From Ascidiella aspersa (Eukaryota), in assembly GCA_963924565.1 (NCBI GenBank), contig OZ004609.1, positions 15,376,001-15,440,000 on the forward strand: 64,000 nt of DNA, read 5' to 3'. The position numbers and the translations under genes are program-made. The notes below the pieces were generated by a model. It made no database searches, was not told where the DNA came from, and saw only the letters and a program-made list of their open reading frames with translations. Positions 27,924 through 58,300 of this stretch are shown here, piece after piece (position 1 is the first letter of the stretch; every line of letters begins with the position of its first letter).

Positions 27924-28305
27924 TTCTCTTTATAAAGAGCCATGAGTTGACCGCCGGTTATTCACTATTGGGGTATTGATATTCACTTAAAAATTCACTG
28001 TAAAAACTTTGGATACGGTTGATTTGATTACTAGTTAAAAAGTATAAAAAAGCCTATGGTATAAATATAGCAGAATTTTGATGTGGAAATTTGAATAAAA
28101 AATTTTGGTATAAATCTTGGTTGGCCAAAAATTAAGGATTTTTTTTAATTTTACAAATTTCAACTTGTCAATATAAATATAACCTGTACGTACAGCTCAA
28201 TATAAAATAAAAATCTTGATATTTTAATTACATATTTTTTTGCAGTTCGACTGTTGCTTAAACAATTGGAACACTAAGTTATTTAAAAACAAACAATTTT
28301 TAATT

Positions 28306-31300: not shown

Positions 31301-34300
31301 AATTTTTTTGTGTTTGGACTTATTTTTGGAAAAAGTTGGTATAATCTGTTTTAGTTTTTAGATGCATTTTGTAAACAGGGTTTGGACACCAGGCCATCCC
31401 TTCCCATACTATATTTTTAATTTAGTAAAGTAACTGCAGAACATATTAGCCCTTCAAGTATTTTTTTTAATATTTATTTGTTTTTTCCTCTTTTAATGAT
31501 TTTTTAAGGCATAATGAGAAATAAACACGATATTGAAAGTATAATGACCCTATTCAATTAATTTTGGCCTACTTTGTAAATATAAAAAAGTTATCTGGCC
31601 TCCATAGGTATTTTTTCTTACACCTTTTCTATGTGACAAATAGGCTATGTGACTCAGACTTTATTGTCTAGCTATTGTAGTGTGGGTAATGCCCTTTAAA
31701 ACAAGATAAAAGCTATGAACACTTATTTCACTTCTGTGCTTTGACAAACTATGTTTATGATTACTATAACTACATTATTGTAAAAATATTCCTGTTCAGT
31801 GTATATGTTTTTTGTTGCCATAGGGATGTGGGGACCAAGGCTCTAAAGTTATAAGTTATATACTTGATCATTTGCAATTAGCCTTTTCATATAGCCAAAT
31901 TAAAAGGTGACTTTTTAAAATGGAGCTGCCTATAAAAGGTGGTCAGTTTGCACAGCCATTTTTGAGCTGTGACAGGTTTGTAGATAGTATTGTAATGATG
32001 ACTATGTTTGCGATTGACAATTCACAATGGCCGATGGCGGACTGCCTACAAGCATGTTTTGCAATACCATCTGGTTCACTTATTCAGTTTAGCAGTTAAA
32101 TCCTTAAAATATGGAAATTCCCCTATTGTGAAAACTTGCTAAATAGGCTGTATTGTAACCAAATGATGGAAATTAGTACTGTAAAATGTTATACGAATAT
32201 GCATATACAGAACAAAGAGCATTGCAAATTAGCTTAAAAAGTCATTTTTTTGCCAAGATATATTTTTTAAAGTTTGGAAACAATTGCTGCTGTTCTTCTA
32301 TGACTTGCAGAAGGCTAGCGTGCTGCTGTGCATCATCACTGATGTCAGTGATAAGTAGTCAGTGTTTAACTTGACCATTCTCTCAGCCACATCAATAACA
32401 ACATGACAGTATTTATAAAGCGAAATTTACTTGGCGTCGGCGTATCCAACATTTTTCTGTATATTGCCGCTTTCTTTCTTTGCCCATAGTAGATGTTAAT
32501 TGAACAATTAAACATCACAATTTTTCATTGAGGTACCAATGATGCTTTAGCAACTTGTTTAGGTAACCTCTTCGACCTGGTTGTCATATTTTGAACATTC
32601 TTTCATCTCCAGGTCATTCATTGAAGCATAGGAACCAATACTTCTTTTTAACCAAGCTGGAACGTAAAAACAAGACAATAAACTGGTTGATGCGCTCCAA
32701 CTGGTTTACAAAATCTTGTTCGTAGCCCATCTGTTTCATCCACATGAACATCTTTTGACAGTATAGCACCTAACTCGTCTATCAAGCGCTGCGTGTAGCC
32801 CCAGGTCTACAAAAAGAGGAACCAGTAATGTCTTTAAATATAACAAGAGTAGTGTGTCTCGCACATTTTTTGTGGTCACCCCTTAGAAATACAATTTATG
32901 TTTGTTTTACTTGAGTAAGAAGAAATCACCTTTAACCGGTTTTGCTTTTTTCAACAACCATTCATTTAAGATTAGCATGGTTTGAAGGGCATTTTTTGTT
33001 AAGCGTCTACCATTTTGATTTAAAGCCATTAGGTAAACTGTGCTCGGGACCAGTTGTTTTATGCCAAACAACTGTTTCCCTACGGATCCTATCAGCAATT
33101 GGTATATATCAGGGGTGGGCAAATGTAGTCAATGGAAGAGCCATTTGCAGAAAATACTAGTACCAGAGAGCCTCAAAATTATTCCAATACAAAAACTGTT
33201 AATAATGCAAGTTCTGCAATAATAACAGAATTGTAATATAACAAGCATTAGATGTCATCGTTTCATTTTGCAGTGTATTCAAGCAGACTAAACTGAGCTC
33301 AAGCTTACTGTCTGAGCAATGAAATTGCGTTGACGTTGACTTGCTGTTAACTAAATCTTCGGATTCTCTGCCTAGTGTTACGTCATAAACGAAATGCTGG
33401 CCTAATAGAAACGTGCATAAACGGTATCTTGATAGCCTTTACAATTTTTTTGGAATTTTATGATTCGACTAGAAGAGCCCAAAAAAACATGCCCAGTTTG
33501 CCCACCCCTGGTATATATGAAGGCGACATGCAAGACATAATACCTTTTGCAACCTAGGTGATCAACAGGGGGACAGCATCACGTATCCTGACACTGTTAG
33601 AAGCTGTCGGGTCAAATACTAAAGCTTTGGAAAAGCTGATCCAAATATTCTTTTCTTTTAATTAATTTAATTAAAAAACAAACAAGTGTATTGATAAGGG
33701 ACGACTGCAAAGAATGTGCGATAAACACTCATGCTACATTACCCAAAGTTCCTTCTCTTGTCATAGACCTGGCGCTACACACTGCGTTTGATGGATGAGT
33801 CAGGTCCTACACAACCAAAAGATATTCATATGGATGAAACAGATAGGCTACAAACAAGATTTTGTGAACCAGTTGGGGCACATCAACCAGTTTATTGCCT
33901 TGTTTTATGTTCCAGCTTTGTTAAAAACAGTTATTGGTTTCTATGCTCCAATAAATGACCCGACGCTTTTGCAAACCATCAAAGAGAATTCAAAATTTGA
34001 CAACACAAGAAGAGGTTGCCTAACCAAGTTGCTGAAGCATCATTGATACCTCAATGAAGAAATTGTAATGTTTTATTATGTTCAGCTAACACCTACTATG
34101 GACGAAAAACGAAAAATAAACAGAAAATTTTAGGATAAACCCAAACCAAGTAAATTTTGCCACGGGTTGCCAGTATTGTATTTAAATGTAACAGAAAGCA
34201 GACTTTCAGTGCAACTGGCTGAGGCTTCCAGTTTGTGACTAGCTGCAAGATAGAGACTAACGAGTTGAGGAAAACTTTGTAAATACTGTCAAGTTGCTAA

Positions 34301-37300
34301 TGATGCTGCAAAAATAATGGTCGAGTTCACTGATTACTCATCACTGACATCACTGATGATGCACAGCAGCGCGCTAGTCTCCTGGTAATTTGCAATGCTT
34401 CTTTGTGTTGAATATGCGTATTTCTTGTTGATGTATTACAAATAACATTTTACAATACTATTGTTAAATAAAAAAGGGTAAGAAGAACCAAATTAGACAA
34501 GGTGTGGTTTAGTCTTTTAAGCTGGTGACACTGTGACACTGTAACACAGACGTTCTCCAAAATTTGTTAGTTGAACTTTTAAAGAAATACAAAAAGAAAA
34601 AAACATATTGAAAATATTTTAGCACACCATTCCACAAGCATCCCTATGCGTGGCTGTCAAAGTTTATCCTCTACCCATAGCCAAGCACACGCTGTACCAC
34701 CAGCTCGCATTGTATGTGCATTTTCAGATGGCGGTGTGGGCTTGTACAATTTGCAACAAAATAGGTGGAGCTTTTTAAGAGAACAGGTACACTAACTTAC
34801 ATTTTTTGTTCTGGTATTCAGGTTTGTTAATCCAATTTTGTTAATTTATTTTGATGTAAAACTGAGTGCATATTCAGCCAGATGGTTGCTTATTCAGCCA
34901 GATGGTATGACATACTGGTTGTCTTTGGAAAAGCTATTACCAAAATGAGTTGGCCTGAGAATTGCAGTGCAAGCAAGACTAGGCTAGAAATATCCAACCT
35001 GTGATGAGGTTCCAACTAACGACCTAGACCACAGGTTCCCAACTTGGGCAGCACCGCCCCCATGTGGGCATTGGCAAGTTACAAGGGGGTGTTTTTGGTC
35101 TTTGTCTCATTTAGGGGGCGCTGAACGCACATCAGGTGATGTTACGTAAAAGTACTTCCGTAAAATTTTATAAACACTTTACATAAAAATAGTAACAAAC
35201 AGCACTGTAATACTGTATGTAACATTTAAGTTTAAATGGCAACTTTCGTACTGCGAACTTGTGGTAGTTTCCCCGCCCATTGTTAACTGGTGTCATAATT
35301 GGCTTTCTTATGTAAGGTTGATGGTTGTTGTTGCATTTCACCATTTTATATGCAACAAAATGTTTCTTTATGCAGAGTCTTGGTGCAGAAAGTTGAAGTT
35401 TTTCTGGTAATAACATAACCTTGAGAAATAATGTATGTATATTGGGAAGTAATTTGGCGCTGGTATAGAATCCTACCACATCGAACATTATTTGGGTTAG
35501 GGTGAAGGTTAGCGTTTGGGTTTGGGTAGGTTAAGCACTATTATTAAATAATAATATTATAATTGTTTCAACGCTGTGGTAGGGTTCTATAGACTAGGGT
35601 CAGCAAGTAGTGTGTCGCGACCCAAATTTGGGTCGCTTAACGGGATACTAATGAGCATTATTGTCTCTATTAATAATAAATTTTTGTTAACATTAACTGC
35701 TTAACCAGGCTATTTTTCAAAAACACGATATAAACAATCTATTATAAGATGCTTTATGCGAATCTTTATGTTGTTAATGCGCTGTGGGACACTAACGTCA
35801 TGGTAATGTAACCTAGCTTTTTGGAAATATATGTTTGGTGTGGTCAAGCATTGTCCATCTTTTCAAATAAGAAGCTTTTCCAGCTTGACGCATTGAGTTA
35901 GGCTGGGCAAAGCAGGGTTATTTAACGTTATTGTGTTAAATTTTATATTGCCCCCTCAAAAATCCTTAGACCCGTGCCTTATAGTGTTGAGCTTATAATG
36001 TTGAGTTTCCTAAAACAATTGCGAGACGTCCGGCATCTTTACTGAGGCCTGCCAAAAATCTTAACACACCTTGCCAGTAATTCTTGCTGTAAGCTAAGTA
36101 GCGGGCGAGGGGGGTAATGGCGGGGAGTTGATGGGGCTGCCACCGAATGAGACATCACAAGTAGTAAAACTCCGGGCTTCTTTCAAGTTGTGTTACAGAA
36201 CCCTAAATGAACAAAACACATAACACAGATTTATTTTCATCAATAGAGACACAATAAGTTACTGTGTTGTTTTGTAACAAAGCTATTTATTAAAAACAAC
36301 TTTAGGTATTTGGGTCGCAAGACCTTGATACTAGTAATTTTGGGTCGCGCCAAAAAGTATTTGTGGACCCCTGCTATAGATCACTGCTCTGCAACTTGTG
36401 TGCCGCGTAATCATGCCTGGTGTGCGGCGACGTACCCGGAGGTGTGTTAATTACGTTTTTAAGGGTACTGTGACAATCCCAGGGTGTAATTTTATGAACT
36501 TTTCAGAATATTTAAAACTTATTTAAAACCTATTTTATCTTCTAACTAATCAAATATCAAAATATATTTGTCAACTCACAACAAATATTTCCAAACTTTA
36601 CAGCAAAGTCAAGATTAACTATAAGCTCGAAACCCATAAAATACAACTGTATTTATATTATTGACATTATGTGATTGTGTAATTAGTCTTGGCAGCAGTT
36701 TTGAAAAAAAATTATGCAAAAAAAGTAAAAAGCACCAAGGCAGGTTTAATTTTTCGAATGTTATTAAAAGCCTTCTGTTATCTAATCAGCTATTGCAAGG
36801 GGGTACAATTTTCCGAACTTTGACCGGCTTTATAAATTTTAGGCAGTCTGCGAAACCGCAAAATTTGAATACATCATTCACTTCTTTTTCTATTGGCTGC
36901 CTCAGTATTTTGCTGATGTTGTGTATTGTCTGTCGACATATATTTTGTAGGTGTGATGCCAAATTGTTTTAGGTCTGTAGGTGTGCCGTAAGTGGAAAAA
37001 ATATTGTGGAGCACTGTTCAAGACCAGCCAAAGTAATCTTTCATGTTGAACAAACGACAAAACTGGATTGCATTATCAAGTTAAATTTTCCGCAAAATGC
37101 AGTGTTATTGTTATGTTTTAGTATGCAAGAAACAAAATTATGTTGAATCGTCAGCCATTTTTGCAGTAGTGCAGAGTAGTTTGCATCAGTGTGTACCTTA
37201 GCGCAATTATTGTTGTATGCAAATTATATATATGCCTTAATTTTTTTTTTTTTTTTTCTATGCACCTACGTCAATAATTGAGAGGGGCATTTGAAATAAT

Positions 37301-40300
37301 ATGGAGCCCAAGGGGGCTCTAGTGTAAAAAAGACTGGGAAACACTGACCTAGACCATACTGGGGTTTTGGACTATTGACTGATCTACACTGGCTCAGTGT
37401 GAGATGATGGAGAAACAACCATACAACTGTTTTTTTGCTGCATCGTGTTCATACACACAACGATATACCATAATCAGGCTACATAGCTTATTATGCAGAG
37501 TGACCGGGGTATGACAAATGTTATTGGATCAAACCTCATCCCAGGCGAGATTTTTCCTACCTTGCATTGCTTGCACTACAATCCTAATCAAACTTATTTC
37601 GTAAAAAGGCTTTTCCAAGACAAACAGTATATTATATACCATAATATGTGGTTACTACTACTTTAATAGGGTTATATCACAATATTATATAACCATTGTG
37701 GGGTAACCTAGTTGCTTGATTGGCCTGTTCATCCCCATAATATGAAGTTCTACAGCAGAATTAGTTCTTTGGTCTTTCTTGACCAGCTCCCACTAAGCCT
37801 GTATAGCTTAGTTCGTAGCGCAGTTGTCTAGTATGTCTGAGCTCATAAGTGCAAACCTCACTGCAGGCTAGATTTTTTCTAGCCTCATCTTGCTGGCACT
37901 AGAATCGTGATTAGGCCAACAAATTTCAGTAATAGCCTTTCCGAATGCGCCCAGTGGCCAGTATATTAGCACAAGTATATATACCGTAATCGTTGGTCAG
38001 TATTACTACTTCAACATGGCTAGATCACAGTATATACCCATGTCTTTTCAAGGACTAGAGTCCTTTATTACTTTTTTTGTCTCAATTAAAGGCTCACATC
38101 GAGACTATATTTGACTGCAAGTTCAAGCCTGACAATCCTAAACAACTGGCCACCGCTTCTTTTGACGGAACTGTCAAACTATGGTCAGTAGATGACCTTT
38201 TGACTATCCAATCGACCACTGGAAATGAGGGCGTTATATATTCAATATCATGGGCTCCAGGTGCACCTTGTTCCTGTGTCAAACAATACATGATTTGTTT
38301 TTTTAAGATTTCTCTGTACTTTTTGTTAAATGTTGGTTTACCTCATATTCAAGATTATACAAAGTGTAACAAAAAAGTCAACTGATCTAAATTTATTAGT
38401 CCAAGTTATGAACTCACCATAGGCAATAAAGTGCTATAAATCACCTACAATTTGCAATTTAGTGCAGGCACTTGGCCAAATATGGTGAATGGTTAATACA
38501 TTACATAGAATGATTTCATTATAACCTCACACGTTGTAATGTAAATTAAATTACTACAATGGGGCTGGGGGGGTCCGTTTGTTGACCGTTTAATTTTATA
38601 TCACACAAAAGACTGGTACAATTAATTTATCAAGCAGCCTAATACTTCGCTGAGGAAATGTTTAAAGCTGTGAATGCTTTTCAAAAAAATTATGCAATTT
38701 AAGTGCATGCCATCAGGACAAAAGATAGAAGCATGTTTGAGTTGGAAACACCTTGGCCACGATTTTTGCAACTATTATGCATATATCCAGACCAAAGGTT
38801 TATAAACTTTTTGCCATGACCCTTGTTTTTATTTAAACCCGTGACTAATCTGTTTAAATGTTTTTCCAAAGTCACACATATGTGTAGCTGGCCTCCATGT
38901 ATTATTTGAGTTCTCAAGTGTAGTTGCAGTAAAATGTTTTTATAATGTTATGTCTGAAAAATAGCCCCTAAACAAAATCACAGAGCAGCCATTGACACCC
39001 CAGTGAGTTTGAATTTAATGAATGATAAATCATACATTTTGTTATAATCTTTACAGTTTATTTAGATGTACCGTGACATTTTGTAATTTAACAAGCTATA
39101 TAATATTTAAAATATAAATATTTAAGAAAAGTGGGTGTTTGCAGATACAATGTTTTGTGTGTTGAACAGTTTGTCTTTGTAGCTACCAATGACATTGTAA
39201 TGTTTAAGAGTCCATTAGACAGTTTCTGTCTAAATAGAAGACTGTATAACATTTTATTAGATAATGCTTGCTCAATGCAATCTATGTTTACACAGCTGAT
39301 CTCAACTGTTTAGCCTGTGGAACTAGAAAACGTGGAATATTTGTGTGGGATCTCAATAAGTCAAAAATTATTCGCCGATTCAAAGAAGTAAGTCAATCAT
39401 AAAGTAGTACTAAACTGTTTTTTTTTAAAGCATTTGCTTTCCCCCAACGAGTTACTTAGTTTAATGCTATACCCTCTGTTCTTTTAAGAAAGATACTTTA
39501 TTTTCACATTAACTTCACAATATTTATGCTGTATTTTGTAGTCCAAAAGTTTCAACAATCTTTTTTTGCGGTACATATTTCCATGAAAATACTGTCAACA
39601 TATATTCTTTTTAAAACCAGTATTTACTATGATTATATTGATCAAATCTGCAATTTTATTAAAATTGGCACGTTTTCCATCGCAGCATGGATTCAAAGCA
39701 GTGTATTGCGTAGCGTGGAACCAGAGGGACTCTCATCGACTTGCATCCTGTTCTGAGGATGGACTGTGGTGCGTACTAAAATGCATAAATTAGCTTGCTA
39801 AAATTGTTTAGCCAAAAAATGCAAACACAATACAGACTTACTTGAATGTCGCAATATTCTTTTTACAACCGCATTAAGGTCACTGCGTGGCGTAGTAATT
39901 CATAAGTACAACATAAGTAATCCTAATAGATTAATAATAATATGTACGTTGGCAATATAAACTTCTTTCTAATCTCATCATACGTTATCAGTAGGGCGAT
40001 TATTTTTTTACTTTAAAAATGAGAAATTTTCACCTAAAAAAAAAATTTTTGACAAAATTTTGACCCATTAGGAATACCTTCAATTAAACAACGCATTGTT
40101 TTATAAAGTAGGCTACTAGTGTTCGGACGTTGGCAGTCATATGTTTTTGATGTCTTACAAACGACCGGTGGAACACAATTCGCTTGTTTTTTTCAGGATT
40201 ATGCAAAACTTGAAAATGCTTAGTTAATATTTGTGGCATATAAAAAGGCGAAAGAAAAACAAGACGCAGGTTATTTTAGAAAAGTGTTAAGGAAACAGTT

Positions 40301-43300
40301 TGGTTGAAATACAAGATAAAAATAATTGCGAAAAATTAAAGACCTATAGCATATTTATCGTAATAGGAAATAATTACAAATTACCACCGAAAATAATATA
40401 AAAAATACTAATTTCGACGAAATTAGAGATACGTATCTATCTGAAGCAGAAACGTTTTCTTAAAGCTAAAGCTATTCCGATAAACCAGACCTGCGTGGTT
40501 AATTCTGGCGACTCGCGTATATCATTATATTTCTCTAATGAGGATATATTACACTTAAAGTGCTGTTGGGTGTATTTCAAAACTAAATTTGATAAAATCG
40601 TAAACTGAACGACAAATAGTTCACTACAGTTATTGCTATTTTGGAAACGACTTTGACTTGCGTATATATTTTGACAAAATTTAATTTTTTTTGACAAGGC
40701 AAAATTCGCCCTGCTTATCAGTTTTAGGCTTGTTTTACAAGTGGTTAAGCGATAAACTTTAGTATAAGATTATGTGTTAAAGAATGGTAGATTCTTGTCA
40801 AATTAACGAGCACAAAATACATATTACATTTTGGAGAGACACAAACTGCAAGGAGATTTAAATAATTTAATTGTGAGGAGATACTAGCACGATCATGTTA
40901 CACAACGATGTTAAACAAGATAAACAATCCCTCATTTCGTAAAAATGTTTTGCAGTAACCTTTGACGTTATAAGGCCGGGAACCACTTGTTTAGTTCTTA
41001 ACCAAAATTTGAAACCCGTATTTAGATAACGACTCTAAAACACGCAAACAAGAGGCGACATAATCAGTTAATTTTCATGAATGGTGAAATATTCATACTT
41101 AAATGCAGAAAACATTCTTGCCGTTTTACAAAAAAAGCAATGGGCAAAGATAACGATGTAGTTAATATAATTGTGAGGCGATGTTGGCACGATCAAACCA
41201 CACGACGATGTCAAACAAAAATAAAAACATGTCGAATATCATGACTATCCCCAGCTGCACAAACCGTAAGCAACAAAGATTGTAGAAATGGTTTGAGTCA
41301 ACAGGATGAATAATGAGCTGACATGAAGTCTAGTGGCGCCATTCTCCCCGTTGTTACGGTGTGCTCCTGTGACTGTCGATGAGTATGCCAAGGTATTGGA
41401 AGATTTCGGGTTGGTGCTGCTAACACCAGTCGGGCGTGGTGTGAATCTGCTGACCTGGTGTGAAACCCAGTTCTGGGTTGTCGTTTGTATGAAAGAAGTT
41501 AATGGTTCTTGTGTCGCCACTGCAGAAGTTTCGTTTACCATGCTTTCAACTGCTGTATTTGGTGCTGTCGATTGCAAAATGATTGACCGACTTGTGTCTG
41601 GCAAGCCAGTGGTCCTGTTTGTTACACTATTGGTGCTGGTTGCTATAGCCACTGTGGATTCTTTATTTGTGTTGTTAAACGCCGGTTCTGTGATTGTGCT
41701 GGTTATTATTTTTGAGGTTGATGGTTCTGATGTAGTGTATAAAGAATTGTTCTCTGTCGTTTCAGTTGTAGCCATAACAATGGGATCCCTAATTGTCGTG
41801 TCCTCGGTGGTACGATCGGTGGTTGTTTTTTCTTTCTCCATCAATTTGGTAGATGATATTGATAGGTTTTGACGTCTTGTCGTCAAAGCTTTAGTCATTG
41901 TGGTGGTTGACATAGTGTTCGATACTGTTGTATTCAACGCTTGTGGACTTGTAGGTGATTTTGTGGTATCCTGATCAACCATTGCATCGGTTTCGTTGTC
42001 AAACACTTCAAAGCCTGGGACCGCAGTCGTGGTTTCACTCTCTGTGTCAAATGCATTTCGTTTAACTTTATTTTTGTAACGAGTATATAAAGTATTTTTT
42101 ATCTTAGCGCAAATATTCGTTTCAGTTTTACAAGGCAGGACAGAAGGTAAAAAAACATTAGTTAAATTTTGTGTTTTATTTTTAATTAAATAATTGTTGT
42201 TTATTTTTTAGCTGTAATATTTGTATATACAAATTGGTGTGTTTTCTAATCATGGGATGTCGTATAGATTTTATTTATAAAGTGTATAACTAATGCGTTA
42301 AGTATCACCATACAATTACTTGGGATCTTACCACCATCCGTTGGACAGTTCAGCTCATCATCGCCGTTGTTGCAGTCCTTTTCACCGTCACATATCCAGA
42401 ACATAGGTATGCAGTTTCCCGCCGAACATGCGACGTATTCGGGAGGGCATCCTTCGGCAACTGATATACAATTTAAAATGGTTACAAACTTTTGGTTATA
42501 TATTGTTTTATAGATAAGCAAGTTTGTTGTTTTATAGATAATCAAGTATAAGTATCAAATCTGCGTTTTAAAACTGTTTTTGCTTACTTGATGATTGAGA
42601 AATATCGGAAGTATTTGGCCGAGATGTTATTTCGCCAGCCGATGCATCCATCGTGATCGTTACATCTTTGTTTGGTGACGTAGTTACAGCGCTTGTTCCA
42701 ATTTTCACAGGAGTTGTAATGACAGGAGGCGACAGGTTATCGTCCGCTATGGATAAAATTATATTTGAGTACGCTGTGTGCCATTTATTCAACCTTCCCA
42801 CTATAAACATTTTAATGCTTACGACAGTTAAGTTCATCGTCATTGTCCGGACAGTCTTGAACTCCGTCACAAAGATAAAATCCAGGTATGCAACCCACAC
42901 CGGAAATACACGCGTACTCGAAAACAGTGCAATCTACAATTTTATGAAAATGAAGTATGGTATTGGGTGATTTTACAAACATGCTGAATAAAAACACGGC
43001 GTTTTTCTGACTAAAAATAAATATATATATATAAAGATATATTCTAAAAAAGATTAGCATACATATATCGAAAAAAATGTTTTTAATACTGCGGCTTACT
43101 CTGTGGAGGAGGTGTGAACCCTAAAGCTTTGGAAGTCTCCGTTGCAGCTACTTCGTTGTCGTCTGTCGTAGGCATACCTAAGCACGATCACAAACATACA
43201 ATTACGTACGTCGGATCGAAGAATTTCAAGTGATAAAATCATAGTTATAATAATATCGACTTCGAAGCACATTCCATTAAAATTGCTGGTTGCATGGGTT

Positions 43301-46300
43301 GTGTAATAAATCTCGGTCGTTTTGTATTGCATTAGCGCTTTGGGTATTAAGTGCTTGTTACTTACACTTTACCTTTACCCGTAATTTAAATATCATGCCG
43401 ATCCATAAGAAACAAATCATTATTATTGAGCCAAAAATAAAACAGAAAACACTACCTTGTGTTGTTGTTGTTGTTGTTGTTGTTGCCTCGCAGGCTGAGC
43501 GCCGCAAAGTAACGTCATCGATTGCGATGTCCCCTTGGTGGCCATTGCCACGAATACCCACAAAAATGATCTAAATTGACATTTTGGTGATTGTCAGCAC
43601 AATTCGTTTTAGATTAATACGTCGTATAAGTTAAACACTTTTTATTTATACCTGTGTTGGTGTGTCGCTGTATGGGATAGTAAGATTTCCTTTTTTCCAT
43701 GTAAGTGCTTGCTGTCCTGTCCTGAACCAACTGATAGTACTTGTCAAATTGTTTGAGATCTCTACTTGAAGGGTGCCGATGTGTGGACCGTACATGTGAT
43801 ACCTACACATAACAATAATAACTGCAGGTGTTCCTTTTTTATAGGCAATAATTACTTTTGGTTCGAGTTATTCTGTTTATTCGTAATTTGTGCCAGTTTG
43901 TAAAATGCTTTATTTAGTTGTGTTGGAATTAAACCAAACAGGTTAGTTGCTGTATTAGAATACGAATATTTTTAAACATTTACCAAAAGTTAAGACACAT
44001 TTCCGATTGAGCGTTATTGAAGTTGATCGTGGGCATAGACAGCATGGCAATATCACCCATTCGTTGAGGTAAGGACGATTCTACATATACGTACTGACCA
44101 TCTGCGAATACAAAAGATAGATAGATAAGTACGATTATATTTTTGAAAAAAATACCAGACGAAATCGAAAATTGGCAAAACTTTTCTCAGGGGTCATGGA
44201 ACAACTAATTTAATCAAGTCTTTTGTTTAGATTCAATTCAAGAAAATATATATACATATCGAACAAACTCAAAAATTGAAACTATTTTACAAGGTTGCAG
44301 TCGCAATAAAAATAATAAAAATAAAATATCAAAAAATACAAACACCAAGACATCAATTAAAAATCTTAATTTTGAATTACGGACAACACACAACAATGCT
44401 TTGGTTTTTGTTAAAAAGCATGTGACATTTTACCCAAAGTTGTGACGCTTAATTGCGCACGTATTCGCTGTTTTAACCTAGATTTGATTTGATCAGATCT
44501 TTTGTCTAATTGGTTTTAATCAAATATTGGTAGTGCTTGAAGTTTTTTTGTTTGTTAACAAATTTGAAATGTTGCTTTACTTACTCATAGTCACTTCTAG
44601 AAATTTATACGCTATATTTTGTTTTACTTAAATAGACATTTTTTTGCTTGAAAACTTTAGTAGTAAACAGTAAATGTAGTTAATTACTCACTGGCACCCA
44701 TTCGTGTTTTGTCGAACGAGGGTCCAGTGAGTGACGTCCTGGTGTTTCCCCTGTTGAGCTCCCAGTCGAAGTCGTCGGATGGCGAAGGCAAGTTTTTCCA
44801 ACCAGCACACAAACCTTGCTCAAAGTTGCAGTCATGTTGATCTGTTAAAATAAATGTGCAATTTGATTTAGATTTCTAACAGGTGTTATACGCTTTGCTA
44901 GTCAGTGGTCGCAATTTAATTATTTCACTTTTTAAACACGTTTTATCGCACAATACCTTCTGGAGGAGCAACCACTTTCCATTTTATAGTGAATCCTGAT
45001 TCCTCGGTATCTTCGTCCGAGTAAAAGTGAACAATCACTGAATTTGTCTTGCTTTGAACGCCGCTAAAGCTCTCGTCTCCACAGAAACGCGTTCTTCCCA
45101 GAAACTCACTTATTTGCGAATCGTCATTGACGTCATTCACGATATCACCACTCGGTCTGGCGTCGTAAATAATAAAACCGTCGTATGGGCAAGCTGGTGA
45201 CTGAGGCTCGATGCTCACTTTTTCGATAAGAAACTGTTATAAACAAGGTGAACTTAAGTATTTAGTATTTTTAGTTTTTATGTATGCTGTTGACGATCGT
45301 AAAAAACTGAAAGCGTGTTCTATAGATATATCGTGCACAACTTTAGGGGCAGTTAAAACAAAATTTAGACGTTAGGTTTAAGTGTAATTATCTTACCTTA
45401 ATTTGCATTCTATCCGGAGCGGAGATTTGCCATCTACAGGAGGCCATTGAAGGATATTTGCCCTGCGGGGTTTTCGGACTGACAATGAGGCCTGAATCAC
45501 CTGTTAGTTGGCCCCCACATTGATCTGAAAGTAATAATGGTTTATATGGCTTAAATGCATACTTTCAAATTTGTTATTTTCGTGTTTTTTGTTTTTAATT
45601 TCGTTTGTATTGAGTGTATAGTATATGAATGGCGATTGTTGAATTTAATCAATCTATGTTGTTGTTGAGGCATTAACATGTGATCGTTAAGGTAGCAGGT
45701 TTTGCTGTATACATTGATACAAGTGCAAGGTTACAAATCGTAATCTTTTCTGGTTAGCTGAAATCCATTTTCGTATTTTCTAAAAGGTGCTTTCTGTAGT
45801 TTGGCGCCTAAACATTACAGCTGGTTCGTTTTTGTCAGATTGTTAGCAATAAAATAGGTAAACCAATTCCTCGGATACTGTTTTATATTTGAAAAAAATT
45901 AAGTAAAAACAGCAATTCCTGTAGACAAAAATCGTTCTTCTGGTATAAAGGAGTTATAAACCAAGTCCAGTTGGGCTCATCAGTAGCTTACTAGGAAATA
46001 TTTCACCCGCACTTCTATGATTGCACCTTCGTTTGGTCGCACACCTTCTAAACTAAGAGCGGCCGACTCCGATTTCTATCGATCCTCTAAAGTGCGCTGT
46101 GGCATGTCAAACAACAGTGACCTATTTATTCAATAAACGATCCGTTTGCTAAATTCCTGCTAACAGCTCAAACGTATTTGTAGCTAAATATTATCCGGCT
46201 TGTTTTTTCTCCGCCCATCTAATATTTAACGATTTAATAAATATAGTAATACTATAAGGTTGAAATGTTTGTTGAAATTACCGTCACTAGTCAGTTATTT

Positions 46301-49300
46301 AGATTAGTTATTTATTTACCTCAATCAGAACTGTGATTGTACTGTGTCTTACCTTTAGTCTCTAAAAGGATCTGTCCAAATACCAATTCGAAAAAGACTG
46401 CGAAACACAGCAATCTGTTCATTTTTCTATCCTGGTTCACAGGTTATCTTTATAAAAAGTTTTAGCTTAAAATATCGGACGTCAATCTACAAATAGAATA
46501 TAACCTCTAGATCAAATTTCTGTAAAGTTTAAAAAAAATATACATATTTTTCTTTTACTTCTTCCTGCTTCTATTCAGTAAATTTTAACGTCATACTCCC
46601 TTGGCGCTTTATTCTCATAAGTTGTTTTAGCAGCGTGATGCTACATGTGAAAAGTAAAGCGTGCCTTTTCAAAGAATCTTCTTTATGATGATGAAGCGCG
46701 CAACCACCTGGAAGTATAACGTCTTGTCGACACGTCACCATCCGCACGACGGGCCTTATAATTGGCAGTCATGAACAGGCAGTGTTAGGCGTGACGTTCA
46801 TCTGCTGACAACGGCTTGGCTAATTCTCCGTTTAAAATTGTTTTCTTGTTGGACGAGGTATTAGACATTCAACTAACATCTTTGGTAATCGTACTTAAAC
46901 ATAAAGTGATGAAATATCTCTCTTTTCCTAAAATGTTTTAACCCCCAAGGTAGCGTTACCGTTATGACGTTATTAGTTAATCCATAATTTGAATCGTGAA
47001 AACATAATGATACACAAAAAAGTGTATTGTTTTAGTCTGTCGTATTTATAAAAACAAATTTATTTTTAGAAATAATAAATTAATAGGCAAACACATCGGG
47101 CTTGCTTTAGTTTCAGATACGATTTGGATTACCGCCATCGGCTTGTAAGCTAATCCAAGCTGGTTATTAAGTGTTATTATTGTTACTATACACGTCAGTT
47201 TAGCGGATGTGGACAATACATGCCCAAAATTACACTGAATTGGTCATTTAAAAACTTGGTAACATTTTCACACAATAATTTTAAACGAATTTTTTGCGAC
47301 ATACAAATTTGTAAATTGAATCGGTATATTATGAACAGGGATTGGCAACTTATTTGCGGCGCCAACGATAAAGATTACGGATTTACCTTTCGAAACAAAA
47401 ACCAAGGTCGTCCTGCTAAGTTATTAGTCTATTTATAAACATGGTCAAAATAACTGGTTAGTTTCCTGAAGATCATGTTATGGTATTGTTACCCCCAAAT
47501 AGTTATAAATCAATAATAATTAACTGAAATTCTGTTTAAAATTTACGCACTATGCTCTTGCGCTAACTGTTTTAGCACTGCCATTCTTGTAGCATGTAAA
47601 ATATGAACTAGTTTTCCTAGCTACGCCACGAAACAAGTAATTCTGATCTCGTAACACCGGCACATCCACTAATTATTGAAGGTTGGGTCTCAACGCATTT
47701 TTTCTTGCCGCTACAAAACCTATATTTAAAAAGTGCCGCTTTCAAAGCTATTTAACTATTGCTTTGTCCTTTGACAGCCTGCGGTCAAACCGCCTTTTGT
47801 TTTTACAATGGCTATTGCACGTTATCCTTCAACCGACAATTAAAATGTTTTCGGCGGTTTGACTGAAGAATCTTGCCACAAGAAGCGTGAAAACAGTTTA
47901 ATGGGCAGCTTTAGCCTTTGGTGGCTTTATGTTGCAGGAAAAGCGGTTTGACTGAAGAATCTTGCCACAAGAAGCGTGAAAACAGTTTAATGGGCAGCTT
48001 TAGCCTTTGGTGGCTTTATGTTGCAGGAAAAGCGAGTATCAGCATGAAACTACATTTTCTCCTTATGTTGTCATATTTTTATTCACTAACATAAACATTT
48101 GTGGTTGTTTATTACAAAATTCTATAATCGTGCTTTTGTTACACGAGTATATGTTTCAATCTTCTAACGAAATAAGTTAAACAAAAATATTTATGAACGA
48201 TAATTATGAATTGCAAAGCCTAAAAGGTCGAGTAGATCGATATCATCTTGATTAAGCCGTTTGGATACCAGCTTGTATCATATTTAGTTAATGGATTTGA
48301 AATTCATTATTAAGCTACAATAGAGATTATGAAGCTTATTGAAGAAAGTATACGTGATATTTAAGTTAAAAGGAAAGAAAACTATTTAAGGTACACAGAA
48401 ACAAGCGATTTATTGATCAGCACTAGATATAAATTTCGCTTTATGGTTCGCTGTACACCATCTTTGTTTAAGCTGATTACGCATTTTTGCTAACATTAAT
48501 GCAACGCCCAAACTTTCTAACTAAAACATTTTTTTAAACTACTTGCAGTGCGATAGAAAAAAAGGTCTTTCTAACGCTGCAAGTGACCACTTCTAAATGT
48601 TATTGGTATAGTAGGAAGATGAGGTCAAAGTCATTCGTAAAGCTTGCAAATCTTTTAAAGCGAGCTTACTCCCAATACACAAGCTGCTTGAGCCAAATGC
48701 AAACCTAATACTTGCATAATGTATGAGAAAAGCAAATTGTTGCATTTAGGGCAAATGTTTTTGTGAGTATAGTTTATGCTTGTATCAAGCTTTGTATTTG
48801 CAATATAGGTGAGCAAACTAATGATTTCATTGCCTCGTGAAAATTCACTGATCTACAAATAAAAGAGTTTCTTTTTTGTGCCAAAAAACTATGTCCGTAT
48901 TTGAAAATAAATGCGCAAGTGTATCTCACAATACTTAAAATTTAAGAATATGTGGGTAATATTGACGGCAACCCATTAAAACATTTATTAGATTGGCAGA
49001 AATTGAATGCTTTATCATTGTAGAACATGTTTGTTCGATTTATGTGATTCCATTTTTGCGTTTGTTTATGTTTTTAACATTGATTGCACATTTAGTATCG
49101 TACGTCGATTAGATGGCGAAGAGTTAAAGAGATACGAACACCCGGAACCTGCCTTCGGGTGTGATTGGAGCATTGTTGATAAGTAAGTCGTACATTAATT
49201 GTTTTTTGCATTTTTTTAGTTGTTTTAAGAGCTTAGGTTTGCGTTGCATGGTTCGCTTGTTGTAATGCGCCATTGGAGTTATTGTGTCTACACTATCAGG

Positions 49301-52300: not shown

Positions 52301-55300
52301 CAAGTTAGGTAATGTTCGGCGCTATTGCGAATTATTGACGGAGTTGGGTGACTGGGAACGGGCTATTGCACTTGCACCTGGTGTGTCTCTTGCTTTCTGG
52401 GCTGGTCTAGTTAAAAGGTAAATCTGTTACTGACAAATCCTCTTTATCTGTGTGTCTTGTCAATGTTTGGTGTAAAAGTAGTTTATCTGTTAATATAAAT
52501 GTGGAAAATTTTAGTATAGCGTTTACCCCTAAGAACTTGTACTTCTTTTTGTCAAAGATATGCCTCCATTTTGGAATCTGACAGTGACAAGGACTCTGTG
52601 GCCTTTAGAATTGCAACTGGTGAAATAACGGAAGCTGTCGAGTTTATCACGGCACGAGGGGATTTGCAGGTAGCTCGGGCAACTTGTTTGTGTCGTTAAA
52701 AAAAGTTATAATATATGTCCTATGTTTTTCTGCTTTTACTCCATAATTTCTTTCTATGTTTCATAAACGATGTTAGGATATTTTGACAGGAGTGCACGAC
52801 TGCATATAAATGATTAAATTATTGTTTTATTGTTTTAGCCTCCCTCAAAATTTAAATTGTAGCTTGAATTCATATTGCAGGATGGACTTCTGGTTGCCCA
52901 AAGTGCGAAAGAGTGTAATACTCCACATCCAACTTTCCCTGAGGAATGTAAAAATATAAAAAACAATACTGACGGCAAAAATTATGACGAGTAAGTGCTT
53001 ATGCTTGAATTTAAAAGAAAAATATGAATGTGAAGGAAAACAAAACATTTGTTTTGCTGCTAACACAGGCAACTAGATATGTTATAATTTAATAAAGTTT
53101 GCATTGTCCTAAATACAATTAGGTGTGTTCTGCTTTTTAAGAAATAGATATTGCAAAAAATAACGTTTCTTGGTCAGCATGTCTGTTGGTTTACGGCAAA
53201 CACAAATGCACACCTAGTTCTCGCATTTGGCTACAGCTTGTCTCTAACCACGAGATTGCAATCTGTGTTTAAAATTCGCCTGATCGGTCCGGCCTTCTTT
53301 CGACGAATGTCGACGATATACAACGACATATATATCAGCTAAACCCACATACAAATAATTTATTTAGCGCTGCAAAAATAAGAGGTTAGAAAAGTCAAAC
53401 AACCGATCTGAATTGGTAGTTTCCTTGGCTTAACCTATCGCTGAATAGTTCGTCTCAAAATGTCTGCCACAAATAAATTTGTTGTTGTACTCAATATTGT
53501 TTTATTATAATTAATTATCTACGGATGTGTTGTAATGGAAGTAATAATGACGGTATTTGGATTTGGTAGAATATTACATTTAAAAAGAACGCTGATCTGA
53601 TTACTATTATAAAAAATCTTTAAAAATGGCCATATTTGTCCAATTCTAAATATAATAATCAGGTAGCACTATATAAAGACAAATTGTATTGATTCTCGAC
53701 AAGCTTTCGTACAAACCGTGCCTTATAAGGTCAAAGTAGAAATGAAAGCCATTGAAAATATTGTTTTTGTTTCAGTCACATACGTCTTTGCGAGCATGTG
53801 CCTGTGTATTTATTAGACTTTTGTTCTTATCTGATAGATTTATTTAGACCGTTATTCTATTATTAAAATTATTGAAATCACCTAAAAAAAAAACTCGCCT
53901 TCTGACAAACTAAGGGTTGTTTTATGTCATTTTACAATCGCCAACTGACTTATTCTTTTTTTATTCTCGAAGCCTTGTGTCTGGATGTTGCGTCAAGATG
54001 GCTGACCGTCACTACAAACGATCATTATCTTTGTCAGCAGCATCCATTCATTTGGCCCAGGATGACGTGGGAAAAGCTATAGACTGTCTCGTTAGGGTAA
54101 GTCTTATTCGACTGAGAATTTTTTTTATAATGCTAACATAATCAACTTTTTCTTGTGGTGCTAATTTTTTATAAATTATAAAACCATTCTATTACCTAAA
54201 ATACTTCTATAGATAGGCGGACTAAAAAGAGTGAAATATTAGGATTTTCTAAAAAAGAAGTCCGCAAAATTGACGTTATATGTATTCATAATATGGCAAA
54301 CAATTTGAAATGATGCTGCCCAATCGAGATTAGTCTTATAATCAAGCAGAGACAAAAATGCTGCAAATTAATATATTGTTTCATAGTGTCACAGTATACA
54401 GATAAAAGGATGGCATACATGAATTTAGCCACTTGACACTATTGTCATATGTCAATGCGTAGTGACCTTATTGGGCCCTAAAAATCGGTCACTTGGTTGG
54501 ACATCTCAAAATCTGTCACTGGTTGGTGTAGCGTGTATTTCATGTTTGCGAAAAATTACTGTTAAAACCGTGCGAGACTGGCGCTCCTAGAGCACGGAGC
54601 AAAATGAGCGAAAAAGTTAGCTATGCACAAGCGGCAGGCGAAAGTGCAGTGAGTGCACTGAGAAGGCCTAACTGTTTAAGCTTAAGAGGAGTTAATCAGC
54701 TTAAAAGAGAAGACTTATGGAATTTAATGAAAGAGGTTGATTTTCATCTGACAAAAAATAATAGGAATTACGGAAATGAAAGGGACTCTAGTAGACGTGA
54801 CGTGTACGTCCAGGGAAAATGTGCTTCACCTTCATAGAAGACTACTGAATGTGTCATACATTCGGAATGTTCGTCTTTACGAGTCCGGTGTTATAAATGT
54901 GGGAAATGGTTGGACACCAATTCCACTCCCAAATGAAGCTATTGAAAGTCGGATTGAAGAACAGTTTGGAGAAGTCAAAAAAATGACACACAGAAAAGAC
55001 AAAGAAGGTTTGTTAACGGGAATGCGGATTGCAACAATGAACAAAGCGGATTTAGAAACGAATCCAATACCAAGTTATGTACGAATGAACGGTTGTGAAT
55101 TTTATGTTACCTACCACGGACAAAAGATTACCTACAAGTATTGTGGCGAAACTGGCCACAAACAAGCTGATTGCGCAAAGCGAAAAGCAGATTACCCACA
55201 GCTCCACAGTAAGGCAAACCAATCAGCAACTCAACCGCCGATAATTGCGTCAGGCCAGATTACCAGCTCATCAACGCCTCTGCGCTCAAAAGCTGGTGAC

Positions 55301-58300
55301 AAAACTGCAGCGCAAACGCTTGAGAATAGAAACGACTCACTGCCCGGGGTTGATGCAATCCCCGCTGATAAACTAAAAACATCCCGAAAGCGACTCCGCA
55401 ATAGACCACCTTTTCTTCCTGACAGTAAATTAAGAATCATGAGCGAAGTTACCGTCTCACTGGATTGTCAAAATTGTCACACGGACAGTCTTCTGGATCC
55501 CCAATGCCGACATTTTTACTGCTGCAAATGCAAACAAGAATACAGGGTTACCAACGCATGCAGTGATGACACCGTCTTGTTTTTGGTGCCTTTGAAGGAA
55601 ACCATGGCTAACTGTCCCAAGTGCCAGGCCAAAATGAGACTTATGCCCTGCTGTGAGGAAATACAACCGGAGTTCCGAATGGACGGCAACATGTTTCAGT
55701 GCATCCAATGCAAAAGGCATGCAATAACGTGTGTGTGTGTAAGACAGTAAATGCTCTTCCAAACGTTACAATGTCTTAAGGAATGTTTAAATCACCTATG
55801 CAAGTATAAATTGATATACTGCAGTTGCTGGAAAAAGTCCGCCGAGGTTATTGAACCGAGTCGGCCATATAACTGCAGTTGCGGGTTCGAATATGAATGG
55901 GATATCGGATTAGGAGTACAGAAGAATAATTAGATGTGTTATGGTAACTATTTTGGTGTATATTTTTTGTTGTTGTATAATGGGTTTCAATATCGCATCA
56001 TTTAATGTCGGGGGTATTCGAAATCCCCGCAAACGAAAGCCAATCTTTAACTTTCTTAGAGAAAAAAACTTTAATATTGTCTATTTGCAGGAAACGCACT
56101 CCTCAGTAAGGGAAGAAAAATTATGGGAAATGGAGTGGGGATTTAAAATATTATGGGCATATGGCTCTACTCACAGTAAAGGGGTTGCCATTCTATTGAC
56201 AAAAAATACCTCGATTTCGATTAAGGAGCTAGAAATAGACCCCGAAGGGAGGTATCTGGTTGCCTCGTTAACGGTTGAAGGCAAAACGTTTAAATTGTGC
56301 AACGTGTACGCCCCAAACAACGACGATCCTATGTTTTTCGATCGACTATTTGCAAAACTAGCATCTATTGACAACTCGGAGTTAATTTTGGGGGGTGGTT
56401 TTAATACAATTTTGCAAGGTAACTTAGATAAAAAACAGGGTCCCTCTCATTCTAACCGAAACTCTCGTGCCAGAGTTCTATCGCACATGCAATCCTACAA
56501 GTTAAGTGATGCGTTTCGATATTTCCACCCTACGGCCCGCCAATACTCAAGGTTTCAGGTCAACCCCATGAGCGCCACGCGTATTGATTTCTTTTTAATA
56601 TCGGAGTCATTATTAAATTGCCTAAGTTCCGCAGACATCACACCAGGCATTAAATCAGATCATAAAATAGTAACCCTTTCGATGACAGTCTCGAGTTCTC
56701 CTCGTGGCAAAGGATACTGGAAGCTAAATACGAATCCGTTGCTTAACAACGAATACATAAAAAACCCGAGGCGCACAATACGTGATTATGTGGCCAACAA
56801 TCCTAAACATGAGTTGAATCCACACATTCGGTGGGGTGCTCTTAAAGCAGCAATACGTGGGGTTCCATTAAACACAGCGCCAAAGTAAAACGAGTAAACC
56901 GCAGTCAACAGCAATATCTAGAACGGGCGATAAAAGGCGTTGAACTGGAATTAACGCTGATAAACCAAGCCAGCACGGCTCAAAGCGATAAACTGGCAAA
57001 TTTATAACTGGAGTTAGATAACTTGATTAAAACGCGTACACAAGGTGCAATTATTAGAAGCAGAGCGCGCTGGGCAGAGAAGGGTGAAAAAAACACAAAG
57101 TACTTAGAGAAACGCCACATCCAAAAAAAATCAATCAACCGCCTAAAAGTGGGTGATCAAATCCAAACAGATCCATCGGATATTCTGAAAGAACTGGCCA
57201 ATTTTTTTGAAAGTCTATACAAACGATGCGATTCTAAATATACTAAGACACAAATTAACGTACACTTATCGACACGAAATCTGCCGCGGCTAGACGCAAT
57301 ACAGAAAGAATCGTCCGAGCGCCCAATCACGCTTGAGGAAATTCTGGCGGCAATTCCCACTATGCCGAGGAATAAATCCCCGGGACTTGATGGATTGCCG
57401 GTAGAATTGTATCAGACTTTTTGGCATGAGATAAAAATCTTGATTTACGATGCTTGGATGTATACTGAAGAAACCGGTAAATTTAGTCAAAGTCAAGCGC
57501 AAGGTGTGGTAACGTTGATCCCCAAGCCACATAAAAAAAAAGCTGATAACTAATCACCGCCTCTTATCTCTTTACTTAATGTGGACTATCAAATTATGTC
57601 AAAAGTTATAAACAACAGAATTAAAACCAATATCGAGTTCCTAATCAGTCGAGACCAAAATGGGTTTATGAAGGGTAGATATATTGGGGATAATCTCCGC
57701 CTGCTCTTTGATATTATCGATTCCTCCGATTTTTATAAAATTCCGAGTTCCATACTTCCTTAGGACAATTACAAAGCGTTTGACACCGTTGGTTGGGATT
57801 TTATTTACGCAGCATTAGATAATTTCGGCTTTGGAAATAACCTAATAAACTGAATAAAATGTTGTTATGCGGATCCTACCTGTAAAATAACCAACAACAA
57901 CTTTATGTCGCGCGAGTTTAAAATCGAAAGAGTGTCCGGCAAGGCGACCCTTTATATCCAACGCTTTTTTTGCTATGTGTCGAATGTCTAGCAACGGCGT
58001 TGCGAAAAGACGAATTTGTAGGACTAAAACTGAATGACGACGAATTTAAAGTATCTCTACTCGCTGATGATACGTTAATCTTTTTAAGAGGCGAACAAAC
58101 TGATTTCGAACGAATATTTGTTGTGCTAGATAAATTTGGAGACATGTCCGGATTTAAAATTAATATGCAAAAATCGCTTGCATTCCACGTAGGAGCCAAT
58201 CGTTCTTCGACAGAAAAACCTTACGCGAACAAAGGCCTCGAGTGGCCAGAACACTCATTTAAGTACTTAGGTATAAAAATTCCACTAAAAAACCCAAAGG

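Follow-up and report, generated by a model that had tools for sequence, protein, structure and literature searches.

What gene lies antisense within the tenth coding intron of WDR17 in Ascidiella aspersa, what could its product do, and how long has it been there? The locus was analyzed in a window of 64,000 nucleotides (nt; contig OZ004609.1, positions 15,376,001 to 15,440,000 of the forward strand), and all coordinates below without a contig name are positions in this window. The initial annotation, made from the sequence of the window, had proposed a complete minus-strand gene encoding a surface protein with CUB, MAM and two LDLa modules, a mucin-like stalk and a C-terminus resembling a glycosylphosphatidylinositol (GPI) signal. 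We found that this nested gene is a real, complete antisense gene rather than a chance arrangement of open frames. It belongs to an old, conserved and unnamed ascidian orthogroup in which known modules stand in a new arrangement.

A complete antisense gene in a WDR17 intron

Twelve minus-strand exons between 46422 and 41245 splice into 2283 nt and encode 760 amino acids (aa) with a single terminal stop, and all 11 introns are bounded by GT..AG, so that coordinates, strand and frame stand as first proposed. The product consists, in order, of a signal peptide, CUB, MAM, two LDLa repeats, a Ser/Thr-rich stalk and a GPI-type tail. The gene cannot be attributed to chance because its orthologues align without gaps over five junctions within and between CUB and MAM in well-aligned sequence, and because it matches locus L028 of a second species in the lengths of exons 4-6 (150, 118 and 151 nt; same phase at the borders read) and in codon pattern (identity at the three codon positions of 0.66, 0.69 and 0.37 over the 137 codons of these exons). 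The features of the host and of the nested gene are as follows.

39686..39768, plus: WDR17 exon ahead of the intron, start approximate (tblastn map and junction reads)
39769..49095, plus: WDR17 host intron, the tenth coding intron, 9327 nt, GT..AG (four junction reads of RNA run X5 and exon map)
49096..49183, plus: WDR17 exon that follows the intron; in L028 the matching exon lies beside the orthologue (exon map)
46353..46422, minus: exon 1 (coding part), ATG and signal peptide, predicted cut after Gly16 (hydrophobic N-terminus; cleavage by rule)
45397..45524, minus: exon 2, first part of CUB, with Tyr47 of the calcium-CUB signature (PF00431, E=2e-6)
44957..45233, minus: exon 3, second part of CUB, with Glu75, Asp84, Asp139 and a long variable loop (PF00431, E=3.4e-7)
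44692..44841, minus: exon 4, MAM profile 1-40 (PF00629; 150 nt, likewise in L028)
43984..44101, minus: exon 5, MAM profile 42-78 (PF00629; 118 nt, likewise in L028)
43652..43802, minus: exon 6, MAM profile 78-131 (PF00629; 151 nt, likewise in L028)
43456..43570, minus: exon 7, MAM profile 131-158 and poly-Thr (Pfam and gene model)
43100..43177, minus: exon 8, Thr/Pro spacer 1, phase 1-1, the least certain exon (gene model)
42823..42933, minus: exon 9, LDLa repeat 1, with six Cys and an acidic calcium cage (PF00057, E=4.7e-10)
42588..42746, minus: exon 10, Ser/Thr spacer 2, phase 1-1 (exon start aligns with Phallusia and Ciona)
42332..42460, minus: exon 11, LDLa repeat 2 (PF00057, E=5.4e-11)
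41245..42041, minus: exon 12 (coding part), Ser/Thr stalk of about 230 aa, candidate omega site Asn729/Gly730 and hydrophobic tail to the stop (rule-based)

The identity of the host was assessed from the plus-strand exon at 38089-38262, for which 516 of 533 candidates scored at E<=1e-10; those that carried a name were WDR17, and identity was highest to WDR17 of Phallusia mammillata (84%) and Ciona (79%). Phallusia WDR17 aligned by tblastn to ten coding exons at 28306-39768, two of which share one gapped match, and next only at 49096. Four reads of run X5 exit at 39768 and resume at 49096, so the 9327-nt intron is real. This fits the earlier placement of the gene in WDR17 intron 10.

Pfam was scanned with 13 stop-to-stop frames, ten on nested exons and three on host exons, with exons 1 and 8 outside the scan. 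CUB was detected on exons 2-3, MAM on exons 4-7 as contiguous pieces of the profile (1-40, 42-78, 78-131 and 131-158) and LDLa on exons 9 and 11, while exons 10 and 12 matched no family. No trypsin family was present in the scanned window exons or in the orthologues, and the nested protein stops after its hydrophobic tail; the modules and the lack of a protease domain thus agree with the first description. All 20 ectodomain Cys lie inside modules (4+4+6+6), and none is unpaired. Intron phases are 1,0,1,1,2,0,1,1,1,1,1; phase 1 was correctly noted as predominant (8/11), and it is found at all seven borders between modules. Such borders are usual for CUB, MAM and LDLa modules and therefore give no age for the gene. 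A small-residue/Gln context at the predicted signal-peptide cleavage and a Pro-Pro motif ahead of the first LDLa repeat (exon 8) are common to the nested protein and its orthologues.

The stalk, estimated at first at about 230 aa, spans residues 497-725, with 38% Ser+Thr and no Cys. In five of five full-length sequences it is 223-320 aa long with 34-48% Ser+Thr and no Cys, and Ser+Thr make up 22-30% of the whole chain in every full-length orthologue. All five full-length sequences tested have a cluster of small residues 27-33 aa before the C-terminus, then a hydrophobic tail, and no cytoplasmic domain. By a hand rule (signal peptide, small omega and omega+2 residues, polar spacer and terminal hydrophobic tail) all five have the features of a GPI anchor, supporting the GPI-like C-terminus as a prediction. 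Run X2 contained five single-base differences within exon 12 (41331-41975, minus strand), three of which change a residue; the stalk is therefore polymorphic.

An ascidian orthogroup and the age of the nesting

A word-seeded search with exon 3 returned no homologues in 15 candidates; an exhaustive phmmer search with the same query against 1.84 billion representatives did find them. It gave 151 matches, of which 150 were listed, and among those listed most were multi-CUB proteins and 14 were single-stretch matches. Ten single-stretch matches were examined, and the five clusters that carried a name were all ascidian: Phallusia 'mucin-5AC-like', Clavelina LOC143467328, Ciona intestinalis 'FLO11/mucin-5AC', C. 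savignyi H2Z7Q7 and Styela CUB-MAM. When the spliced model was compared with 158 proteins, 11 scored at E<1e-50 and the next fell to 1e-20. The database orthologues are Phallusia mammillata CAB3264078.1, Ciona intestinalis XP_026693488/491, Clavelina lepadiformis LOC143467328 and, in part, Ciona savignyi H2Z7Q7. Identity to the nested protein was highest in Phallusia (43.8% over 530 aa, E 7e-146), followed by Ciona (43%) and Clavelina (35-40%).

Orthologues of these three genera have the same CUB-MAM-LDLa-LDLa order, Ser/Thr stalk, hydrophobic tail and long CUB loop at 35-44% identity, and differ from the nested protein in spacer lengths and stalk sequence; an unnamed homologue, P0028, has one LDLa, and Styela has CUB-MAM only. 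Spacer lengths vary widely among orthologues, and Ciona has spacer splice isoforms. Identity to Phallusia is 54/128 in CUB, 83/166 in MAM, 24/37 and 26/36 in the two LDLa repeats and 50/216 in the stalk, indicating that the folded modules are kept and that the stalk keeps only its composition (Ser+Thr 0.34-0.48). The suggestion that the protein is lineage-specific therefore holds at the level of ascidians and fails for the species.

Searching the same genome with exon 3 gave a single match in 15 candidates, the nested gene itself, and the next-best MAM and LDLa matches were 39-56% identical; the gene looks single-copy at the sequence level. In a tree of 12 rows, after six distant or partial rows had been dropped from the alignment, the orthogroup occupied one side of a branch (7 rows; support 68/93, not starred), and enteropeptidase formed a separate clade (100/100). 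A profile search yielded 132 matches, 120 of them listed, and no non-tunicate protein with the architecture of the nested gene was among those listed; because multi-MAM proteins dominated this search and its list lacked the orthologues known from Ciona and Clavelina, its negative result carries little weight. The non-trypsin rows with CUB, MAM and LDLa among the matches listed were Phallusia, a Ciona TIL paralogue and a truncated fish enteropeptidase. MALRD1 and MAMDC4, which dominate the profile and atlas matches, also combine MAM with LDLa; they have repeated MAM-LDLa units, a transmembrane segment with a tail and no CUB among the matches listed, whereas the nested protein has a single MAM. 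The atlas searches, with best feature scores of 0.76 and 0.83, below 0.9, provided leads only. The architecture is likely restricted to tunicates.

Database names such as 'mucin-5AC-like' are automatic and misleading. A literature search, limited for subscription papers, returned no paper on the nested gene, on six orthologue identifiers or on any gene nested in WDR17, the one paper listed for the last topic being on start sites in human retina. The view that this is not a named family was thus upheld in the searches made; the orthogroup is conserved, though not a well-known one. What has been defined is an unnamed, misannotated, single-copy ascidian surface protein whose module order was not found outside tunicates in the searches made, and which is experimentally tractable in Ciona. 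Nothing is overturned: genes nested antisense are common, as are shuffled mosaics of CUB, MAM and LDLa, and public databases already contain the orthologue proteins.

The age of the nesting was assessed with L028, obtained in a metagenome scan with P0008 that gave two loci (one animal). The orthologue runs from about 9690 to beyond the locus end at 20354 and includes CUB, MAM, both LDLa exons and the Thr-rich last exon; outside its resolved part are exons 1 and 8 and the last stretch of exon 7. Its CUB-MAM is 49.7% identical to that of the nested gene, and third codon positions are saturated, so the two species are distant. On the opposite strand of L028, at 136-49, we detected the counterpart of the WDR17 exon 49096-49183 (77% identical); acceptor position and phase agree, and the orthologue lies antisense to and upstream of this counterpart. 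No further WDR17 exon occurred in the remaining 20.2 kb of L028; the far host exon lies beyond the locus. The proposed check for nesting in relatives was therefore answered in part: flanking exon, strand and acceptor agree, and the far exon falls outside the locus. The two species probably share nesting in the same WDR17 intron, which would then be old and could serve as a synteny marker.

For comparison, the accessible part of one survey counted 972 nested genes in human, with most overlaps not conserved (PMC2151771), unlike the overlap described here, which is apparently common to two distant species; the same source describes MUC15 overlapping TMEM16C, likewise a lineage-restricted mucin-like gene on an ancient gene. 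Most likely the gene entered the intron long ago, has stayed there by default and is driven by a promoter of its own within the intron.

What the nested protein may do

We consider the nested protein to be a GPI-tethered, non-catalytic, calcium-dependent ligand-capture co-receptor, with a rough probability of 0.55, the capture of ligand being suggested by the families of its modules. The tethered binding protein of the initial annotation thus remains the best reading. After removal of the signal peptide, the C-terminal ~30 residues would be exchanged for a GPI anchor near Asn729/Gly730, as the rule predicts. The O-glycosylated 230-aa stalk would raise the head some tens of nm above the membrane, and the Thr-rich spacers could let CUB-MAM and the two LDLa repeats contact a single ligand at multiple sites. 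Protein ligands are bound by calcium-binding CUB and LDLa modules at Lys and Arg side chains, weakly by one module and strongly by several combined. Ligands would accordingly be captured through calcium-loaded acidic pockets and then handed to a partner. The protein has no intracellular part and could not signal alone; a partner is therefore implied, and the protein may concentrate or present ligand to a transmembrane receptor, an endocytic partner or a protease.

The calcium-site residues are consistent with such a role. Among homologue rows covering them, Tyr47 is kept in 7/7 and Glu75, Asp84 and Asp139 in 8/8, and the four align with the same positions in CUB domains of PCPE-1, cubilin and MASP. 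The Asp/Glu cage is kept in both LDLa repeats, and the aromatic residue, which in LDLa modules stacks on ligand lysines, is kept in most. The CUB therefore carries the calcium-binding signature, and calcium-dependent binding is predicted. In the accessible part of one paper, the Tyr-Glu-Asp-Asp motif marks calcium-binding CUBs whose recognition of protein ligands relies on several contact points, each weak by itself (PMC10850435). Between Cys81 and Cys117, the eight long-loop homologues examined have a loop of 35-46 residues, versus 23-29 in Styela, in the TIL paralogue and in one fragment. This loop contains 6 acidic and 3 basic residues in the nested protein, 3/3 in Phallusia, 3/5 in the L028 protein and 1/1 in one fragment. 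The acidic CUB insert noted at first is thus an insert of conserved length without conserved acidity, and its charge was rejected as a functional feature.

Known proteins offer partial parallels. The heavy chain of enteropeptidase (TMPRSS15) likewise has adjacent CUB-MAM and LDLa, with CUB-MAM 25-32% identical, and this non-catalytic chain was the best PDB match by sequence (E=7.5e-32) and by fold, and also the closest match among predicted structures. Its SEA, second CUB and SRCR are not in the nested protein, which has an N-terminal signal peptide and a C-terminal anchor, whereas enteropeptidase has type II topology. The nested protein may act like an enteropeptidase stem without its enzyme. 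CD320, with an LDLa pair on an O-glycosylated stalk (E=5e-7), and PCPE-1 and cubilin, which capture ligands by calcium-CUBs, are possible functional analogues; none of these, nor NETO1/2, unites CUB, MAM, two LDLa, stalk and GPI tail.

Several observations weigh against this reading. The calcium signature also occurs in secreted paralogues and is thus generic. The ascidian CUB-MAM-LDLa-TIL proteins (Ciona LOC100177508; L017-L019) and Styela CUB-MAM XP_039257610 have this signature; they share the CUB-MAM(-LDLa) head at 32-34% identity and lack stalk and anchor, with a short CUB loop, other exon borders and multiple copies. The tail has a maximal 19-residue hydropathy of 1.64-2.35, compatible with a tail-less transmembrane anchor, and about 40% of the chain is mucin-like, compatible with a barrier role. 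The AlphaFold model is of low confidence (mean predicted local distance difference test score, pLDDT, 47.8; predicted template modelling score 0.32), with the CUB loop at pLDDT <50. In about 6% of run X5, 93 reads were placed on 38500-44300, covering nested exons 5-12, and no splice junction of the nested gene was among them. Reads in the orientation of the nested gene occurred only at 41216-41603 (depth 0.6-0.9, about one read pair). Most intronic reads have the same orientation as those on WDR17 exons and are attributed to host pre-mRNA. The RNA-seq check proposed initially has thus confirmed the host junction (4 reads) and no nested junction, and so shallow a sample speaks neither for nor against its expression.

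A cell-cell adhesion molecule, homophilic or heterophilic and using MAM as MDGA and RPTP do, possibly a neural or synaptic auxiliary like NETO or LEV-10, is an unlikely alternative. MAM with a GPI anchor recalls MDGA1/2 (MDGA1 MAM, E=8e-31), and CUB with LDLa weakly recalls NETO. MDGA1/2, however, have six Ig domains and one FN3, not found by Pfam in the nested protein or its orthologues, and lack CUB, LDLa and stalk; NETO and neuropilin have two CUBs, a transmembrane helix with a cytoplasmic tail and, in neuropilin, FA58C, whereas the nested protein has one CUB, no such tail and no FA58C. No unpaired ectodomain Cys is available for a meprin-type covalent dimer, and a long glycosylated stalk usually opposes close apposition. 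A homodimer prediction for the Phallusia CUB-MAM gave no answer (score 0.00) and argues neither way. In the accessible part of one study, Ciona KH.C3.474, whose best match is MDGA2, marks the adult cerebral ganglion (PMC13542503); this gene could not be tied to the nested gene.

It is rather improbable that the protein is mainly a membrane mucin, part of a glycocalyx that protects or lubricates the epithelium of gut, endostyle or branchial basket, with a head that would cross-link mucus or capture particles and microbes. The Ser+Thr content of the chain, the variable spacers with their Ciona isoforms and the mucin-like database labels would suit it. However, the head and its calcium residues are under strong purifying selection, suggesting a specific protein partner, and tandem repeats, SEA and VWD domains are lacking. 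The VWD/C8/TIL/cystine-knot domains of gel-forming mucins (MUC5AC) were not found by Pfam in the orthologues.

Improbable, too, is a more elaborate version of the co-receptor, a receptor family invented by tunicates, in which the enzyme of an enteropeptidase-like stem was replaced by mucin stalk and GPI anchor, kept in the same WDR17 intron throughout ascidian evolution by regulation shared with its host and capturing ligand on WDR17-expressing ciliated or sensory cells. The initial annotation had suggested ciliated epithelium or gametes; none of the analyses points there. We regard a gamete recognition protein on sperm or egg as distinctly improbable, since the head is steadily conserved among distant genera, unlike fast-evolving gamete-recognition proteins. 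Ascidian sperm do have GPI-anchored binders (Urabin) and CUB proteases (PMC9265791), and the accessible text of this review contains no whole-word mention of MAM or LDL. That the gene is silent or decaying in Ascidiella aspersa, as the missing junction reads could suggest, is scarcely credible given its intact 12-exon frame, canonical splice sites, complete set of structural Cys and purifying-selection codon pattern, and the small share of one RNA run that was read.

Surrounding repeats and other CUB and MAM genes

Several repeats and mobile elements accompany the nested gene and its host. High-copy short repeats occupy 39990-40700, just beyond the 3' end of the nested gene, where contig depth rises to about 100-fold above the flanks. 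A 73-nt direct repeat (75%) lies at 40855-40927 and 41155-41227, just downstream of the stop, and a perfect 89-nt tandem duplication at 47854-48031, upstream of the gene. An uninterrupted 914-aa endonuclease and reverse-transcriptase frame at 25216-27957 (minus), presumably like a long interspersed nuclear element by motif, ends some 350 nt ahead of position 28306, where WDR17 starts. In a later WDR17 intron (exons 54114/61228), a broken retroelement at about 54500-59200 (plus) has ORF1-like, endonuclease and reverse-transcriptase pieces by motif; we take it to be L1/Tx1-like. A frame at 6677-7003 (minus), with an Ig-like C-terminal motif by eye, is part of another gene.

Other CUB and MAM genes were detected elsewhere in the genome. 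At least three CUB-MAM(-LDLa)-TIL genes like Ciona LOC100177508 (L017, L018 and L019) lie on contig C1 at 29.15 Mb and 12.72-12.74 Mb, two of them adjacent and on opposite strands. L012, with L030 and L031 (C4, 21.68 Mb), is a divergent CUB-MAM-LDLa gene with more LDLa and an SRCR-like piece, whose CUB is split at the same phase-0 position as that of the nested gene; it was rejected as an enteropeptidase-like parent, since the 30 kb examined contained no match to trypsin. L010 (C7, 15.248-15.253 Mb) is an Astacin-TSP1-CUB-MAM gene. At L008-L009 (C9, 22.247-22.258 Mb), VWA, FG-GAP and integrin-alpha Ig exons are immediately preceded on their strand by MAM exons; these may be two neighbouring genes or a single integrin alpha that carries MAM at its N-terminus. 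Finally, a dense run of dozens of MAM exons at 34.61-34.88 Mb of C1 is probably a MALRD1-like giant gene or cluster.

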